A stretch of DNA of 64,000 bases from Eledone cirrhosa (lineage: Eukaryota): positions 20,088,001 through 20,152,000 of the forward strand of contig OZ024756.1 in NCBI GenBank assembly GCA_964016885.1, given 5' to 3'. Position numbers and translations under genes: made by a program. Below the pieces are notes generated by a model. The model had not been told where the DNA came from, made no database searches, and saw nothing but the letters and a program-made list of their open reading frames with translations. Position 1 is the first letter of the stretch. The number at the start of each line of letters is the position of its first letter. Shown piece after piece: positions 3,595 to 56,832 of the stretch.

Positions 3595-3708
3595 CTGTGA
3601 AGGGTATTTGTTTGAATCAGGTGGTCCTATCTGAGAATCTTGGAGACATTCTTTCAGTAATTCTTTCAAAGTCTCTTTCATTTCGGTAGCAAGACTGCTC
3701 ATCCACTT
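3595..3708 (-). CDS. DYNC2H1: Dynein-2 heavy chain, exon 17 (KWMSSLATEMKETLKELL...KYPSQ)
   Basis: cacag| and |gtaatc; 114 nt; W...L..EM..TL and PSQ motifs. Confidence 0.9.
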
Positions 3709-3787
3709 CTGTGAAAGACAAACAATTTAAGAATAAAGAATTAGTTTAATTTTATTAACTCTTAATACTAAACCACCTGAAACCACA

Positions 3788-4197
3788 CTTGTTGAGCAAT
3801 GAAACATGGGTCTGTCGCTGAAAACGGCAGGTTGGCACTGAACCAGTCAGGCAGTCAGTGGATCAAAAATCTTCAGCTTGTTGAGCAAAGAAACCTGGGT
3901 CTGTTGCTGAAAACACCAGGTTGGCACTGAAGATAAGAGTCACATTAATTTAAGCAGTCAGGCAGTTAGTGGATCAAAATCTTTAGCTTGTTGAGCAATG
4001 AAACCTGGGTCTGTTGCTGAAAACACCAGGTTGGCACTGAAGATAAGAGTCACATTAATTTAAGCAGTCAGGCAGTTAGTGGATCAAAATCTTTAGCTTG
4101 TTGAGCAATGAAACCTGGGTCTGTTGCTGAAAACACCAGGTTGGCACTGAAGATAAGAGTCACATTAATTTAAGCAGTCAGGCAGTTAGTGGATCAA
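3788..4197. repeat. Tandem repeat, 110-bp unit x ~3 plus a shorter first unit
   Basis: gcttgttgagca recurs at 3876, 3986, 4096. Confidence 0.9.
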
Positions 4198-5114
4198 ACA
4201 GCTGGAAGGTTCAACATTGAAACTAACAAAAGATCCACCACTGAAGATACTAAGGTTTAACAAAGACTGCCAGTTTAACAAATTATAAATATTGATTTCA
4301 ATTAAGGTAAATTAAGGTACAAAACCAGGTAAATTTGGGGTAAGGGCAAAATTGATTAAATCGACCCCAGTACTTGACTGGTACTTTATTTTATGGACCC
4401 TAGAAGTATGAATGGCAAAGTTAAATCTTGGTGGGATTTGAACTCAGAATGTAAAGAGTCAGAACAAATACTGCAATGGCATTTTATCTGATACACTACT
4501 GATCATATCAATCAACCATCCTCATAAATAATGGTTTCTTATATAGGCACAAGGCCAAACATTTTGGGGGAGGGGAAAGTCGATTAAATCGACCCCAGTG
4601 TGTAACTGGTACTTTATTTTATCAACCCCGTAAGGATGAAAAGCAAAGTTAACCTCAGAAGGATTTAAACTAAGAACATAAAGGGACGTAACTATATGCC
4701 ACAAAACATTGCCTATGCCGCAAAGTATGTTGTCAGATACTCTGCTCTACCGATACTGGCAATCCCCTCCTGCAAAATATAAATATCAAAATTGTAAATC
4801 TTCATACAAAAGAGTTAAATTTAAGCCTCACAGACTAATGTATGTAAGAAAAAGAGAAACCAAAAAATATAAAAAAACAAAGAACAAAAAAAAGACTAAA
4901 AGGAAATATTTGGAGAGATCTTATTAAAGAGACAGCTTCTGGATGTGAAAGAGTAAATATGGATGCGGCATTAGTAGTGATTTCTTGTATATTAGGCACA
5001 CTGCCAATTCTTATATTGAGAACAATGTAGCCAGTTGTATTGAACTGTAGTAGAAGATCATCTTTTGAAAATGGCAGTAAAGAAGCAGATGATAATGGAA
5101 TTTATATTTATAAT

Positions 5115-6367
5115 GGATTTAGTGGAGAAGTCTGTTATTTCTGCCATTCTATTGCCATATTTAGTGGAGAAGTCTGTTATTTCTACCATTCTATTGTCAT
5201 ATTTAGTGGAGAAGTCTGAATTTTTACCATTTTATTGCCATATTTAGTAGAGAAGTCTGTTATTTCTACCATTCTATTACCATATTTAGTAGAGAAGTCT
5301 GTTATTTCTACCATTCTATTACCATATTTAGTAGAGAAGTCTGTTATTTCTACCATTCTATTACCATATTTAGTAGAGAAGTCTGTTATTTCTACCATTC
5401 TATTACCATATTTAGTGGAGAAGTCTGAATTTCTACCATTCTATTGTCATATTTAGTGGAGAAGTCTGTTATTTCTACCATTCTATTACCATATTTAGTG
5501 GAGAAGTCTGAATTTCTACCATTCTATTGCCATATTTAGTAGAGAAGTTGGTTATTTCTACCATTCTATTACCATATTTAGTAGAGAAGTCTGTTATTTC
5601 TACCATTCTATTACCATATTTAGTAGAGAAGTCTGTTATTTCTACCATTCTATTACCATATTTAGTAGAGAAGTCTGTTATTTCTACCATTCTATTACCA
5701 TATTTAGTAGAGAAGTCTGTTATTTCTACCATTCTATTACCATATTTAGTAGAGAAGTCTGTTATTTCTACCATTCTATTACCATATTTAGTGGAGAAGT
5801 CTGAATTTCTACCATTCTATTGTCATATTTAGTGGAGAAGTCTGTTATTTCTACCATTCTATTACCATATTTAGTGGAGAAGTCTGAATTTCTACCATTC
5901 TATTGCCATATTTAGTAGAGAAGTTGGTTATTTCTACCATTCTATTACCATATTTAGTAGAGAAGTCTGTTATTTCTACCATTCTATTACCATATTTAGT
6001 AGAGAAGTCTGTTATTTCTACCATTCTATTACCATATTTAGTAGAGAAGTCTGTTATTTCTACCATTCTATTACCATATTTAGTAGAGAAGTCTGTTATT
6101 TCTACCATTCTATGACCATATTTAGTAGAGAAGTCTGTTATTTCTACCATTCTATTACCATATTTAGTAGAGAAGTCTGTTATTTCTACCATTCTATTAC
6201 CATATTTAGTAGAGAAGTCTGTTATTTCTACCATTCTATTACCATATTTAGTAGAGAAGTCTGTTATTTCTACCATTCTATTACCATATTTAGTAGAGAA
6301 GTCTGTTATTTCTACCATTCTATTACCATATTTAGTAGAGAAGTTGGTTATTTCTACCATTCTATTG
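5115..6367. repeat. 42-bp minisatellite (~30 units)
   Basis: Unit tttagtagagaagtctgttatttctaccattctattaccata; 14-aa periodic ORFs. Confidence 0.95.
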
Positions 6368-7269
6368 TCATTAAGTGTTGTCAACATATAACATTCTAAC
6401 CGCACAAAGAACAATGTGATGATGATGATGATGATGGGGAGGATGGTGGGAGGAGTAGGAGGAGAGGAGGAGGAAGAGGAGGAGGAGAAGTGGGGAGAGG
6501 AGGAGAGGGGGAGAAGAAGAGGATGGGGAAGAGGAAGAGGAGAAGGACGATAATTTGGTAGCATGGCTTTGTAGTAAAGAAGTTTCATTTTGCAACAGTC
6601 TGGTCTCAGGTTCTATCCTACTGCGCAGACACCTCGAACAAATGTCTTCTAAACTAATACTTAATCTCAGACCGCTAGAACAGTGTTCACCTTAGTAGGA
6701 TTTTAACCCAGAAGATGTCACGGAAATGTGTGACGAAAGAACTCTGATAAATTATATTTATATTTATAGATACTTTTAACTGTTGGTCAATCAGTGATAA
6801 ACATTGATTACCAGCTAAATTATTTATAAAAATATAAAAATATAAAAATATAAAAATATACTGAAGCAAAAACCAAACCAAACCAAACTGAGTGTGTCTT
6901 ACTATTTTTTGGCAATATTAGGACAACAGAAAATTGATTCCATCGAATACTATCGGCATTTGGCGTCATTCTCATGAATAGCGAAATAACCACAAAAAAA
7001 AAATAAATAAAAAAAAAAATCGCTTGAAAACAATTTAAAAAATTTAAATCTAAAATTAATCCCAATGAGAAGAAACCAGAACATTATTCTCTGAAAGTTC
7101 CTTGGAATTTTAAGTCCGAAATATTAGGATGGAAGAATCGACAGCAACAATGAAAAAATAAAACAAAGATTACCAGGTAACTTATTTTTTTCGTTACCTT
7201 TATCTTACAGTCCATTTTGCATTGTTTAGCCTGATATCTCTTTTCACATTAACAATGTAAATATTTTCA

Positions 7270-9406: not shown

Positions 9407-9434
9407 TTTTTTTTTTTTTTTTTTTATCAATTAA

Positions 9435-9486
9435 ATTTTATTATACATATTTCAGAGGTACAAAGTACATCCTCATCAGACAAAAT
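9435..9486 (-). ncRNA. Type-I hammerhead motif, family A'
   Basis: minus: ATTTTGT-CTGATGA-GGATGTAC TTT GTACCTCT-GAAA-TATGTATA-ATAAAAT. Confidence 0.72.
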
Positions 9487-9874
9487 ATATTGATACATGA
9501 CATACCCTGAGATGTTAAATGGTTAAGATTTAATCAAATATGTATAAAATTTAATTGATCAAAAGAACATCTATTTTATTATATCGGTAATCTAACTTAC
9601 TCGGTCCTCAATGTTCCCATTGACTGATCTGTATTATTTTTGACCGTCGGTCAGTCAATGGCAACATTGAGGACCGAGTAAGTTAGATTACCGGTATTTT
9701 ATTATATATATATATATATATATATATAAGGTGTCCTTAAAGTCACTTAGATATTTGAAAGTCAAATATTATGCTTGTTTATTAGAATATAAAAAAAAAT
9801 ATCATGGTAACTTTTGGGACCCCTGTATATATATATGTGTGTGTGTGTATATATACATATATATATATATATTC

Positions 9875-20542: not shown

Positions 20543-20601
20543 GCTGTTATATATATTTCGGTGATAACCATTATACAACAGCTATGAACTCATCAGGCAG
20601 C
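20543..20601 (-). ncRNA. Type-I hammerhead motif, family D
   Basis: minus: GCTGC-CTGATGA-G..ATAGCTGTTG/TAATGGTTAT..C-GAAA-TATATATA-ACAGC. Confidence 0.65.
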
Positions 20602-30389: not shown

Positions 30390-31285
30390 TTTCACTATAA
30401 CCCCTCAAATGACTGGTACCTTAATTCACCAAGTACCTTTCACTATATTTCGAGTTGAATTTGGAAGTTAGAAGCTAGTGCAGAAGCTTGCCCTAAGTAT
30501 ATATGGCACAAAAATGCACCCGGTATACTCCATAAGGGAGGTTGATGACAAGAAATGCACCCAGCTATAGAAACCATACCTAAAAAGGGTTGAGAGGACC
30601 CTTAAGTTGTGTCAAAAACACAACAATGTCTTTAGTGTTGGTGATCTATATGATAAATGCACCCAGTACATGTTGTAAAGAAAGCTTGTCAAACAAAGAG
30701 TTGGGAGGACTCTTTAGTTATGTCAAGAATATGACATCCTCCCTAGGGCTGGTGATCTACACAATAAAAGCACCCAGTACATGCTGTAAAGTGGTTGGTG
30801 TTAGGAAGGGAATCCAACTATAGAAAATTTACCAAACAAGGAGTTATGAGGACCCTTCAGTTGTGTCAAAGACATGACAACTCCTTCTCTGCTCTTCATA
30901 GAATGTATGACTGTATGTACACAGCATGCAGACCCCTTAGCCTGTCAGGGATGTCAGCTGCCTTGCTTCCACAATGACTTGGTCTATGTAGACCCATCCA
31001 ACCCTTTCTAGTAGCAAACGCGGACGTTAAATGACAAACTGATGATGATTATATATATGTGGATTGGCAGTATTGGTAGAGGGTCGGACGCCTTGCTTTG
31101 ACGCATAGAGTTACGGCCCTTGCCATTCTGAGTTCAAATCCCGCCGAGGTTAACTTTGCCTTTCATCCTTACAGGGTCGATAAAATAAAGTACCAGTAAT
31201 ATACTGGGTAATTGTTGGCCTTGTGCCTAAAGTAGAAATAATTATATATATACATTCACTCTGACAGTTGGCAGGTAAGCAGTAT

Positions 31286-31332
31286 ACTGTACTGATGAAG
31301 GTTAATCACCCAGAAACATTAGTGTCTGCAGT
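31286..31332 (+). ncRNA. Type-I hammerhead motif, family G (GUC triplet)
   Basis: ACTGTA-CTGATGA-AGGT TAATC ACCCA-GAAA-CATTAGTG-TC-TGCAGT. Confidence 0.7.
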
Positions 31333-32242
31333 TCTGTTTACATGCCAATACAAGAACAAAAATGACGGTCATTCTACTGACATGGCTTAAAAAGAGGGTG
31401 TTTGCATAATTGCAAATGAATCAAATATTATTATTAATATTCGAAAAACTCAGATACATTTATTGTATTCAGCCACAGAGAGTGAGAAACTATTTGTTTG
31501 TTATACACACACATATATATATATATATGGAGACACATGGCTTAGTGGTTATAGCATTGGGCTTGCAATCAAAAGGTTGTGAGTTCAATTCTCAGACCGG
31601 GTGATGTGTTGTTTCCTTGAGCAAGACACTTTATTTCACATTGCTCCAGTTTACTCAGCTGTAGAAATGAGATGATAGGGACTGGGGTCCCTATCATTCC
31701 ACTGCAAAGTGGTTGTGGAGGTGCTACGGCAAAAAAGTACCCAGCACTCACTGTAAATGAGGTTGGTGTTAGGAAGGGCATCCAGCTGTAGCAAACAAGC
31801 CAGAATCAGTTCCCGCAAGCAGGGAAAAGCGGACGTAAAGTGATGATGATATATATATATATATATATATATATCATCATCATCAACGTTTAACGTCCGT
31901 GTTCCACGCTTGCATGGGTTTGGATGGGGGTATTCCCACTTGAGGCAAGAGTGATTGTCTTGCTCGCATAGGACTGTCTGGCAGGTTTTCTACAGTTGGA
32001 TGCCCTTCCTAACACCAACCACATTTACAGTGTGGGTCTGGGAGGTTTTTACCGTGTTGCCTACACGGCCACATTACAGCATGGACTGTGTGTTTTTTTG
32101 TCGTGACACCTACACGATCTCATTTGTTTCGGCCTGGATGGCGCGGCACCAACATAACTTTACATAGAACGGGGTGGTGTGGATGGGGTGGGGGTGGTGG
32201 GACGGGGTGTATTTTGTTAGAGATGCCTACTGGCTATAGTAG

Positions 32243-46077: not shown

Positions 46078-46672
46078 CTAGGAGATATCAGAGGAAAAAA
46101 GATTAACCCTTTCATTAATGTATTTCTAATGAGACACACTCTCCCCTATGGTTTTCAAATAATTTGGAAAATAATCAAGAAATTAGAAAGATTCAGCAAC
46201 ATAACTATCTGTTTCATTATTAAGCTGTTGTGTGGAAAATAATACATAAAATTGAAGGGTTTTAGATAAATATAGACACTTTAAAAGGAAACATTTTCTT
46301 TTTTGTAGAACCAGACAGTTAAACTTCCACATTATATGTTGATTGTTTTGTTTTTTCATTTGTTTGTATCAACACCTGTATATATAAATATATATATATT
46401 TATATATAAACAAAGAGATATTTAATTTGTTGGTTATTGAACAAATTTATTTATAACAGATTCAAAGCACTCTACAGATTTCTTCTGGAGTATAATATCA
46501 ATGATATTAATAAATGGAAACTATCTTTATAAAACCATATTTAATTTATTATATATATTTCAAAGGTACCAAAATATTTTGGTATACTCTCATCAGATAA
46601 AATACAAAAGTTGTTTCATAAATATTGACGTATCCAAAAAACAAGAACTTATCATTTTAAGTTCAACTTTTG

Positions 46673-46733
46673 TATCTTATCTGATGAGAGCCTACCAAAA
46701 TTTTGGTACCCTTGAAATATATATAATAAAATA
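46673..46733 (+). ncRNA. Type-I hammerhead motif, family A (mirror copy on minus strand at 46542-46604)
   Basis: TATCTTAT-CTGATGA-GAG CC TACCAAAA/TTTTGGTA CC CTT-GAAA-TATATATA-ATAAAATA. Confidence 0.75.
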
Positions 46734-46787
46734 AATATGGTTTTATAAAGATAATTTCCATTTATTAATATCATTGACATGTATATT

Positions 46788-54112: not shown

Positions 54113-54449
54113 ATATGTATCTATATATATTGCAAACGAATCAAATATTATTATTATTAATATTCGAAAAACTCAGATTACATTTATTGTATTCAGCCAT
54201 ATAGAGCGAAAATTTAAAAAAAATTCTTTTTATTTGAATATGGTAAAGCCGACCATTAATCACTCGTATATAGGAAACTGACTGGCCAGTCTGCTGATAT
54301 GTAAGTCTGGCTGATCAGTGGATCTGCTAATATGCAGATCTAACTGATCAGCCAGTCTGCTAATATGCAAATCAGGCCGAACAGTCACCGTATATTTTAG
54401 AAAATATCATATATTTGCACTAGCTCTGACAGTTTGGCAGGTGAACAGT

Positions 54450-54499
54450 GAACTGTACTAATGAAGGGTAATACCCAGAAACATTAGTGTCTGTAGTTC
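54450..54499 (+). ncRNA. Hammerhead motif, family G, core-mutated (CUAAUGA, G5A)
   Basis: GAACTGTA-CTAATGA-A GGGT AAT ACCC A-GAAA-CATTAGTG-TC-TGTAGTTC. Confidence 0.55.
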
Positions 54500-54673
54500 T
54501 GTTTACATGCCAATGAGGGGCTCATTCTGCTGACATGGCTTTAACAAAGAGGCTGTTTGCATAATTGCAAACGTCTCGAATATTATTATTAATATTTGAA
54601 AAACTCAGATTACATTTATATATATATATATACGATATTAAATAAATGGAAATTATATTTATAAAACCATATT

Positions 54674-54739
54674 TATTTCATTATATATATTTCAGGGATA
54701 TCATATTAAAAATATGTTATGCCTTCTTCAGACAAAATA
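54674..54739 (-). ncRNA. Type-I hammerhead motif, family A
   Basis: minus: TATTTTGT-CTGAAGA-AGG..CATATT/AATATG..CCT-GAAA-TATATATA-ATGAAATA. Confidence 0.7.
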
Positions 54740-55069
54740 CAATATAAACAGTCTTATAAATAGATAGATTCGACATACCTTTCAACTTCGACTTGCATTT
54801 GAAAAGTTGATTTGGTAGTGAAAAATATTATTCAGTGCTTTGAGTGCTTTTATATCAGTTATAAATATTTACTCGTTGTAACCCAACAATTTAAATAAAA
54901 CTTTGCATATATATATATATATATATTTTAAATAGTTAAACAAGATTCAATGAGTATGTCAAGGAATGAGTTTTACAGTAGATTGGAAGCACTCTACGGA
55001 AAAAATAATATTACTACCTTGATATATTACTAACCATTTAATATCTCAGGGTATGTCATGTATCATTAT

Positions 55070-55122
55070 ATTTTGTCTGATGAGGACGTACAGTTGTACA
55101 TCCGAAATATGTATAATAAAAT
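55070..55122 (+). ncRNA. Type-I hammerhead motif, family A' (best-formed copy; predicted cleavage after 55115)
   Basis: ATTTTGT-CTGATGA-GGA C GTACA GT TGTAC A TCC-GAAA-T ATGT A-TA-ATAAAAT; canonical G10.1-C11.1 pair. Confidence 0.85.
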
Positions 55123-55162
55123 GTAATTGATCAAAAGAACATCTATTTTATTAATATTTGTA

Positions 55163-55228
<66 letters not shown>

Positions 55229-55318
55229 TATACATATATATACATATATATATTTATATATATATAATAATAGTAATAATATATGTCAAGACTAAAATCT
55301 GAAGAGAGCTCCATAAGG

Positions 55319-55371
<53 letters not shown>

Positions 55372-55373
55372 CC

Positions 55374-55414
<41 letters not shown>

Positions 55415-55668
55415 GTAGAGTAAATATTTATTATAAGTACAGATTATAGTTTAAGCAAAGAATCGCTGCTTTCACCCTTTTACGGGATCTTCTGAAACTT
55501 CAGAGTTTGAGAGGATCCCGTAAAAGGGGTGAAAGCAGTGATTCTTTGCTTAAACTTTAATCTGTACATATAATATATATGTGTATATATATTCCGGGAG
55601 CTTCCAACAGAAATGGTCGCATTCTTTAACGGTATGTCAATATTTATTTATAAAACTGCTCTATATTA

Positions 55669-55733
55669 TATTTTATCTGATGAAAGTACACCATAATTTA
55701 ACTTGGTGTCCTTGAAATATGTATAATGAAATA
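55669..55733 (+). ncRNA. Type-I hammerhead motif, family A
   Basis: TATTTTAT-CTGATGA-AAG T ACACCA..TGGTGT C CTT-GAAA-TATGTATA-ATGAAATA. Confidence 0.8.
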
Positions 55734-56214
55734 AATATGGTTTTATAAATATAGTTTCCATTTGTTAATATATCGCATATATACACGGAGGCACATGGCT
55801 TAGTGGTTAGAGCATTGGCCCTGCAATCGAAAAGTTGTGAGTTCAATTCTCAGACCGGGTGATGTGTTGTTTCCTTGAGCAAGACACTTTATTTCACATT
55901 GCTCCAGTTTACTCAGCTGTAGAAATGAGATGATAGGGACTGGGGTCCCTATCATTCCACTGCAAGGTGGTCGTAGAGGTGCCACGGCAAAAAAGCACCC
56001 AGCCCACACTGAAAAGTGAACATGTAGGCGCCACGGAAAAAAGCACCCAGCACTCACTGTAAATGAGGTTGGTGTTAGGAAGGGCATCCAGCTGTAGAAA
56101 TCAAGCCAGAATCAGTTCCCGTCCCACCCTTGCAAGCAGGGAAAAGCGGATGTAAAATGATGATGATGATGATGATGATACATATATATATCCCTTCCAT
56201 CAGGCATCTACCAT

Positions 56215-56832
56215 AATCTGAATGCCTTGTTTCCCTGCACATAAATACATTAAAGCTCTAGCGTCCGGCAACTGACTTGGTAGACACCCACAAACTTATT
56301 AACCATCTTGAACACCTTTTTGAATTCCATATGTCTAACACCTGTGAAGATGCTTACAAAATCAGAAAACAGCACAGCTCCCATCACTATCAGAAACGTT
56401 TTTTCACGCTCAGAGTTTCTGAAGCATGGAACAAACTACCTGCATCAGTTGTTAGTTTTCGGGACACTGCATCCTTCAAAACTTCCATGCTTCCCCAAAT
56501 TTGCCAACACTGCACCTGATATTCCCCCTTCATACACACGCACGCATGTATCTGTGTGTATATCATGACTCATACACTGTTCTCTTTCCTGACATTTGTA
56601 CATTATTCTATCTACTATACTATATGAGTTCAAATCCCGCCGAGGTTAACTTTGCCTTTCATCCTTACGGGGTCGATAAAATAAAGTACCAGTAATGTAC
56701 TGGTTAAATGCTGGCCTTGTGCCAAAAGTAGAAACAATTATTCTATCTACTATACATGCACCTTTGATGGTTGTAGTGCGCCTGAGCACTGTACACAATA
56801 ATTTTCATTACTTTTATTATTATTATTATTAT
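56215..56832 (+). mobile_element. CR1/L2-like LINE 3' end interrupted by a truncated SINE A
   Basis: RFFTLRVSEAWNKLP..VV...SFK motif; (ATT)n tail; SINE at ~56627-56736 flanked by 19-bp TSD attattctatctactatac. Confidence 0.8.

Follow-up and report, generated by a model that had tools for sequence, protein, structure and literature searches.

Four islands with ribozyme-like motifs in Eledone cirrhosa DNA are very probably 5'-truncated pseudo-LTR (pLTR) ends of four separate families of Penelope-like elements (PLEs), likely of the Hydra clade, which landed successively in (TA)n. Three of them carry predicted consensus type I hammerheads that likely cut RNA as dimers; the fourth consists of two head-to-head ends, whose predicted fold has A in place of U at core position 4 (U4A) and likely cuts poorly.

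The window (the whole stretch of 64,000 nucleotides that was analysed) is AT-rich repeat DNA, and the assembly searched comprises 3.0 Gb. A core scan and a reading of the window located the four islands where a preliminary description of this DNA had placed them, interspersed with (TA)n runs. Its statement that the A and A' copies share a constant core followed by TAT[AG]TATA was borne out: CTGAnGA, a stem, GAAA and TAT[AG]TATA occur in this order at 54731 (minus strand), 55077 (plus) and 55677 (plus). The palindrome reported at 55437-55567 is predicted to fold with -98.9 kcal/mol (z -19.6). A fifth hammerhead end, mutated, at 54458 had been overlooked in the island count. The features of the stack are the following.

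54128..54620, plus strand: end of family Q, the fifth repeat family; a direct repeat occurs at each end and the hammerhead it contains is mutated (core CTAATGA at 54458, C17 at 54491). It stops in (TA)n where the stack starts.
54633..54831, minus strand: 5'-truncated inverted pLTR of family A-minus, ending in (TA)n (43 rows, 97-100% identical; RT and GIY-YIG upstream in L222-L225).
54674..54739, minus strand: predicted type I hammerhead of A-minus, core CTGAAGA at 54731-54725, predicted cut after A54682.
54840..54907, plus strand: leader/'tail' extension of A-minus in opposite orientation, the other half of the inverted insertion; it directly follows the pLTR in L163, L164, L168, L170 and others.
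54926..55000, minus strand: leader/'tail' extension of A', inverted (direct order in L139-L141).
55012..55166, plus strand: A' pLTR ending in (TA)n, with GGTATGTC at 55050 (2,168 exact 22-mers genome-wide; RT and EN upstream in L309 and L310).
55070..55122, plus strand: predicted type I hammerhead of A', with its core at 55077-55083 and cleavage predicted after A55115.
55265..55430, minus strand: family P leader, inverted, with an internal TA-rich tract at 55322-55407; in L151, L277 and L278 the same leader connects the motif with the ORF start.
55431..55502, minus strand: left arm of the palindrome, a pLTR end of family P, with a hammerhead-like fold at 55499-55448, core CAGAAGA (U4A) at 55494, U.U at 10.1-11.1, a 5-bp helix III and U17 at 55453.
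55503..55575, plus strand: right arm of the palindrome, a second P end with a more mutated core (GAGAGGA at 55509).
55590..55775, plus strand: 5'-truncated pLTR of family A ending in TA, with GGTATGTC at 55631 (44 rows, 97-100% identical; full element L138).
55669..55733, plus strand: predicted type I hammerhead of A, with its core at 55677-55683 and cleavage predicted after A55725.

Judged from their sequence, the motifs of A-minus, A' and A are type I hammerheads with a palindromic helix III. All three contain the consensus core (C3UGAnGA9, G12AAA15.1, U16.1 and H17) and three helices with an open helix I and covarying pairs, helix I varying on one side only. Helix I has 7-8 AU-rich pairs, and helix II consists of three pairs, a mismatch and four to seven further pairs. 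Helix III is short and palindromic, ATAT[AG]TAT here and ATGCGCAT in a sister subfamily; across families it is palindromic or self-paired, with a change from A-U to G-C in three of 15 representatives. A17 falls at 54682 in A-minus, at 55115 in A' and at 55725 in A; the position in A' agrees with the cut site proposed earlier. These hammerheads likely cut the RNA of their element. An Rfam search of the window at gathering and E-value thresholds matched no hammerhead family, and its miRNA-type matches were rejected as artefacts of hairpin and TA sequence.

Cleavage of the 55070-55122 monomer had been put forward as a refuting assay. It is weak in that role and could fail for trivial reasons, because the monomer is predicted to misfold (MFE of -9.3 kcal/mol, versus -3.1 kcal/mol in the hammerhead fold) and monomers of PLE hammerheads have been reported as silent (PMC4209133). 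Those with a short palindromic helix III are described as inactive monomers and weakly active dimers, and have been proposed to release unit RNAs, possibly circularising (PMC4209133, PMC6765202). The AUAUGUAU dimer helix is itself predicted to be weak (-2.2 kcal/mol).

The core scan gave further matches in the window at 9479 (minus), 46596 (minus) and 46681 (plus), and an additional pair at 805 (minus) and 929 (plus) was recognised by its GAAA half. These belong to insertions of the A clan at 655-1000, 9420-9530 and 46395-46780, which form inverted pairs (805/929 and 46596/46681) or, at 9479, a lone A' type. Family Q, likely another PLE end without a linked ORF, reads CTGATGA or CTGAGGA in five other copies in fetched DNA; it is also present at 31236-31463, where the core is intact near 31290, with helix III ACATTAGTGT and C17. 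Hammerheads of other families lie at 20596 (minus), 20993 (plus), 47584 (minus) and 53304 (plus); their self-paired helix III sequences are ATATATAT, ACAYATGT and AGAACT, and the helix II region spans about 60 nt in the 20993 and 53304 copies. The window also contains tRNA-like SINE heads at 31538-31595 and 55796-55853 (one adjoining the family A end), a fragment at 56190-56620 that is 76% identical to the 3' end of a LINE RT from L047, and another long hairpin amid TA runs (9585-9700), which may be two ends of one more family in inverted arrangement.

The link to PLEs comes from the loci in which the islands continue into coding sequence. The order in full elements is pLTR (with the hammerhead), leader, ORF (RT, Zn-finger linker, GIY-YIG), long 3' UTR, pLTR, tail and (TA)n, often preceded by an inverted truncated copy. 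For family A, whose copies occur on many contigs, walking upstream led to a GIY-YIG-type ORF and then to RT on the same strand, and walking from the ORF start led to pLTR, hammerhead and leader in front of it. A whole family A element (L138) comprises an inverted truncated copy (hammerhead at 1356, minus), a 5' pLTR at 2414, an ORF that starts at 2651 and runs for 611 aa before the frame shifts into EN, a 3' UTR well in excess of 1 kb, a 3' pLTR at 6505, the tail and (TA)n. The unit measures 4,091 nt in this element and 3,676 nt in L313. RT/EN was found upstream of A-minus in 4/4 long loci, and RT/EN or EN upstream of A' in two of the four inverted pairs fetched. Family A-minus is young: nine other copies are 100% identical over 142 nt, and copies with full identity lie on several chromosomes. 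A 20-mer pattern of the clan has 57,167 exact matches genome-wide (control, 3). In every case the motif lies on the ORF sense strand, and pLTRs in tandem or inverted order, a one-end tail and 5' truncation are found in L138, L313, L222-L225, L274 and L309.

The single ORF encodes RT and, at the C-terminal end, a GIY-YIG domain. Every copy seen carries frameshifts or truncations, and no wholly intact ORF was present among the copies examined (the L138 frame shifts before EN). The RT matched Pfam RVT_1 with an E-value of 1.6e-4 and 21.9 bits, below the Pfam cut-off of 29.6 bits; its Atlas look-alikes (0.95-0.97) are among HTH_animal/RVT_1 clusters. For EN, the Atlas gave 0.97 to a cluster named GIY-YIG and 0.95 to a cluster with PF01541 on 31% of its members, while a Pfam search of the EN piece gave no match. 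Comparison with solved structures gave no significant match. Marks of the Hydra clade were recognised by eye in the translations (CxCX5C linker, DKT, CxxC and CxH in EN, no CCHH; the RWK motif reads RWR in families A and P), and insertions lie in (TA)n across loci. On these motifs, the families likely belong to the Hydra clade. A different PLE-like ORF (708 aa open) is nested beside family A in L103 (minus strand, about 3615-5738) and in L017:3-1424; its GIY-YIG is C-terminal, and its RT motifs A and B are separated by a long insert.

The word GGTATGTC, noted earlier upstream of the cores, was found at 55050 (plus), 55631 (plus) and 54779 (minus), and also at 9506 (minus). It lies in the clan pLTR, 27 to 48 nt before the core, and is common to the families because it is part of this pLTR, shared by descent. 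In Penelope of D. virilis, the pLTR contains an intron with its 5' splice site. We lean against GGTATGTC being such a site: subfamily D reads GATAYGTC, with no GT at that place (three copies), and B and P lack the word. Contigs of four runs of unknown kind from one study contained no GT..AG joint at GGTATGTC, which is no evidence either way. In full-length family A, GGTATGTC is predicted to supply one of the two strands of a long helix, ORF codons 12-14 supplying the other (pair probability about 1.0), and in short A copies to pair with the pLTR end instead (0.5-0.8). No covariation of the helix with the ORF was found, the sole sister leader recovered (L313) differing on the ORF side only. In L138:2350-2720, GGTATGTC together with the flank upstream of it shows complementarity to ORF codons 12-20 in three segments, amounting to about 21 predicted pairs, and the predicted helix encloses the hammerhead, the leader and the start codon. 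In L048 (core at 1972, minus), one copy of a family whose helix III reads ACTAGT/ACTGGT has a perfect donor-like site, AG/GTAAGT, about 45 nt before the core; three sister copies have AGGAAAGT or lack the site.

The palindrome consists of two ends of a fourth such family, P, joined head to head. Its arm is a dispersed repeat (60 rows) that occurs singly or head-to-head with variable centres. Upstream of the arm come a 3' UTR and then an RT-EN ORF sharing about 40% identity with that of family A (L274), and downstream is the leader, which reaches the ORF start (L151, L277, L278). The insertion in the window accordingly covers 55265-55575, including the TA tract. An antisense ORF in the family P body was discarded as no real frame. 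At the place of the hammerhead, the arm reads AGTTT-CAGAAGA-T-CCC-loop-GGG-T-GAAA-GCAG-loop-TTGCT-T-AAACT, so that three helices surround the remaining core and U4 of the CUGA turn is missing; helix I has a bulged distal extension, and the U.U at 10.1-11.1, the 5-bp helix III and U17 are family features. A relaxed three-helix descriptor, written after the motif had been seen, matched the arm and 0/20,000 shuffles. The substitution at position 4 is family-wide. Among 61 copies found (7 not countable), CAGAAGA is present in 44 of the 54 countable ones and CTGAAGA in none; copies selected by the body read CA in 33/40, with 5 unreadable and 2 other. Exact 17-mers number 25,693 with A4 and 125 with U4 genome-wide, a ratio that fits later point mutation.

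The U4A fold is likely weakened in cutting, judging from published core mutants: single mutants of the CUGA turn were all of low activity in a mutational scan (PMC9901934). What else the fold could do is a more tentative matter. We consider it quite possible, short of probable, that in a family of more than 25,000 copies with a broken U-turn and constant stems and core, the fold is an RNA handle, for end recognition by RT/EN or for end joining, and not a nuclease. Alternatively, U4A would be an active natural variant of the core, rescued by tertiary contacts or by protein, which we regard as unlikely. Conservation speaks for activity: in three P subfamilies (9, 18 and 29 copies), 24/123 upstream columns vary versus 6/78 motif columns, and these six are all in loops 1 and 2, leaving stems, core and loop III unchanged. 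Moreover, three family P 3' ends checked contain no CTGAnGA other than the motif, and a U4C viroid variant stays sufficient in vivo, the U.U also being tolerated (PMC3088659). End recognition could explain the same conservation, however, and besides the low activity of the CUGA-turn mutants, the predicted MFE structure of the window arm differs from the hammerhead fold. The three subfamilies offer no two-sided covariation. No natural U4A hammerhead was found in the literature searched; the figures and supplements of PMC3088659 and PMC4209133 may hold one.

The preliminary description had claimed a stem II that covaries with pairing kept, and this was recovered on a wider basis. With the majority arms of seven subfamilies, drawn from 145 motif instances in fetched DNA deduplicated by their flanks, 48/49 were paired within families versus 223/294 across families, and the true matching of arms was the best of 5040 permutations. 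A second test used 15 representatives, hand-picked from 70 arm types: 95.8% of cells paired versus 87.8% after shuffling (0/500), and the covariation score was 0.397 versus 0.244 (0/500), with slid controls at 38-52%. Of the five measures, two fell short of significance (31/500 and 458/500), and the subfamilies are related, which inflates such tests. Of the eight helix II pairs, seven changed on both sides, as did one pair of helix III. The internal mismatch also stood: pair 4 is C.C, C.A or C.U in 7/7 subfamilies, and its 5' base is C in 15/15 representatives. The T.C of the 55677 copy is a minor form (17 versus 46 C.C). Of the three stems quoted, the third (GAG-CC...) comes from 46681, outside the range described, and its second mismatch is absent from other copies of that subfamily.

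Selection at this locus, which had been read from the covariation, was not upheld: the islands are copies of families numbering thousands to tens of thousands, with decay within families. Among 23 distinct stem II variants of family A, 12 break a pair, 7 are one-sided and none is compensatory; therefore selection would act on the transposing masters, not on this locus, and copies decay once inserted.

Pairing in stem II could also be kept at the DNA level, by inverted-repeat correction or as a hairpin used by the endonuclease or RT, and not for RNA catalysis. Template switching can homogenise hairpins, and family P thrives despite its non-consensus core. In addition, Naiads spread without canonical hammerheads (PMC8557442). 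We nevertheless judge a DNA-level cause improbable, in view of the unpaired core (CTGAnGA/GAAA/TA), which is kept while the stems change, of the G.U pairs tolerated in helices I and II, and of the constant position of the motif on the ORF sense strand.

The cluster had been presented as a special hotspot, which the analysis did not support: every island represents one truncated end, each from a different family of retroelements, and comparable stacks are common elsewhere. In 30 P loci and 30 A' loci, pattern-picked and taken in genome order, the end of another family was present within 1.5 kb at 9 and 8 loci, respectively, where about 8% was expected from exact-match density (a low baseline, the patterns having allowed mismatches). 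Five clan matches lie within 2.7 kb on C1. The clan inserts in (TA)n, a preference described for the Hydra clade (PMC8557442); we infer that (TA)n targeting, leaving TA at each end, accounts for them. A host-selected ribozyme array acting on a transcript of the locus, for instance as a heterodimer of A' and A on one plus-strand RNA, might be imagined from the intactness of the three consensus cores and from the fact that A' and A are on the same strand, 600 nt apart, with identical helix III. It is very improbable, since each island is a young or common repeat copy, the orientations are mixed, similar stacks occur elsewhere and copies decay without compensation. There is practically no chance that the palindrome has nothing to do with ribozymes and is instead the MITE of a DNA transposon that duplicates a TA target: it is a near-perfect 130-bp inverted repeat bounded by TA, but its centre differs between copies, single arms are common, and the arm is continued on one side by a 3' UTR with an RT-EN ORF and on the opposite side by a leader with the ORF start (L274, L277, L278), where a MITE would have fixed ends on both sides and no retroelement body.

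The successive landing of PLE ends can be pictured as follows. Transcription would run across two pLTRs, the palindromic helix III of the two hammerheads would pair, and a unit RNA (4,091 nt in L138, 3,676 in L313) would be released. In A, A' and A-minus, insertions appear to extend beyond the cut site by about 50 nt at a short end or by about 140 nt where the tail is included; the RT template would therefore include sequence 3' of the cut, as uncut, rejoined or jumped RNA. Reverse transcription would be primed at a nick in (TA)n and would mostly stop early, and the TA left at the insertion ends would invite the next insertion. Selection for the fold would operate in transposing masters; the copies in the window are likely dead.

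PLE pLTR hammerheads were published in 2014, and those of the Hydra clade, octopus included, in 2021. The families described here share with the former (Cervera & De la Pena 2014, PMC4209133) the type I motif in pLTRs, the short palindromic helix III, the long helix II, solo copies in the thousands, pairs on opposite strands at distances of 100-700 bp and covarying consensus families. They differ in lacking both an extra base between A9 and 10.1 and a fixed G10.1-C11.1, and in having the C.H mismatch at helix II pair 4 in all subfamilies and a long AU-rich helix I. With the Hydra clade, including Hydra-1_Obim (Craig et al. 2021, PMC8557442), they share CxCX5C, DKT, CxxC/CxH, (TA)n targets, inverted truncated copies and tails, and perhaps also RW[K/R], which reads RWR in families A and P, whereas their 3' UTRs are long and their units of 3.7-4.1 kb exceed the Hydra tendency of under 3 kb. 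In the Hydra rows of File S2 of that paper, 14/26 have U.U flanking helix II and 10/26 are cut after U, like family P, but all 26 listed cores begin with CUGA where family P reads CAGA. An octopus Hydra element with a hammerhead is listed there; six motifs of the present families were not found in the supplement, in which a match might be concealed by line breaks. Animal non-LTR retrozymes (PMC7229834; bioRxiv 10.64898/2026.07.22.740005) also carry type I hammerheads, in short non-coding repeats related to pLTRs; they are tandem non-coding monomers each with a hammerhead, whereas the islands here form no tandem arrays and are truncated ends of coding elements in mixed orientation, and this candidate was set aside. 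Among natural core variants (Perreault et al. 2011, PMC3088659), the U10.1-U11.1 mismatch and U4C are known, whereas U4A, family-wide in P, does not appear in the text consulted (the figures may differ). Recently active Penelope families are reported in an octopus repeat annotation of 2026, whose text leaves ribozymes unmentioned (PMC13282606).

What is added here to the known PLE hammerheads is a set of young, possibly active families, together with a clean series of covarying stems in which the C.H mismatch is invariant. The single unusual part of the cluster is the U4A family, which bears on whether PLE mobility needs cleavage. Hammerhead function in EN+ PLEs has been called unclear, with the suggestion that the motifs may merely be parasites of PLEs (PMC8557442); an abundant family with a conserved fold and an altered core base makes this question testable. 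If the RNA handle reading is true, the A4 family and the 125 natural U4 copies would be a ready-made pair for testing the role of cleavage in PLE mobility.
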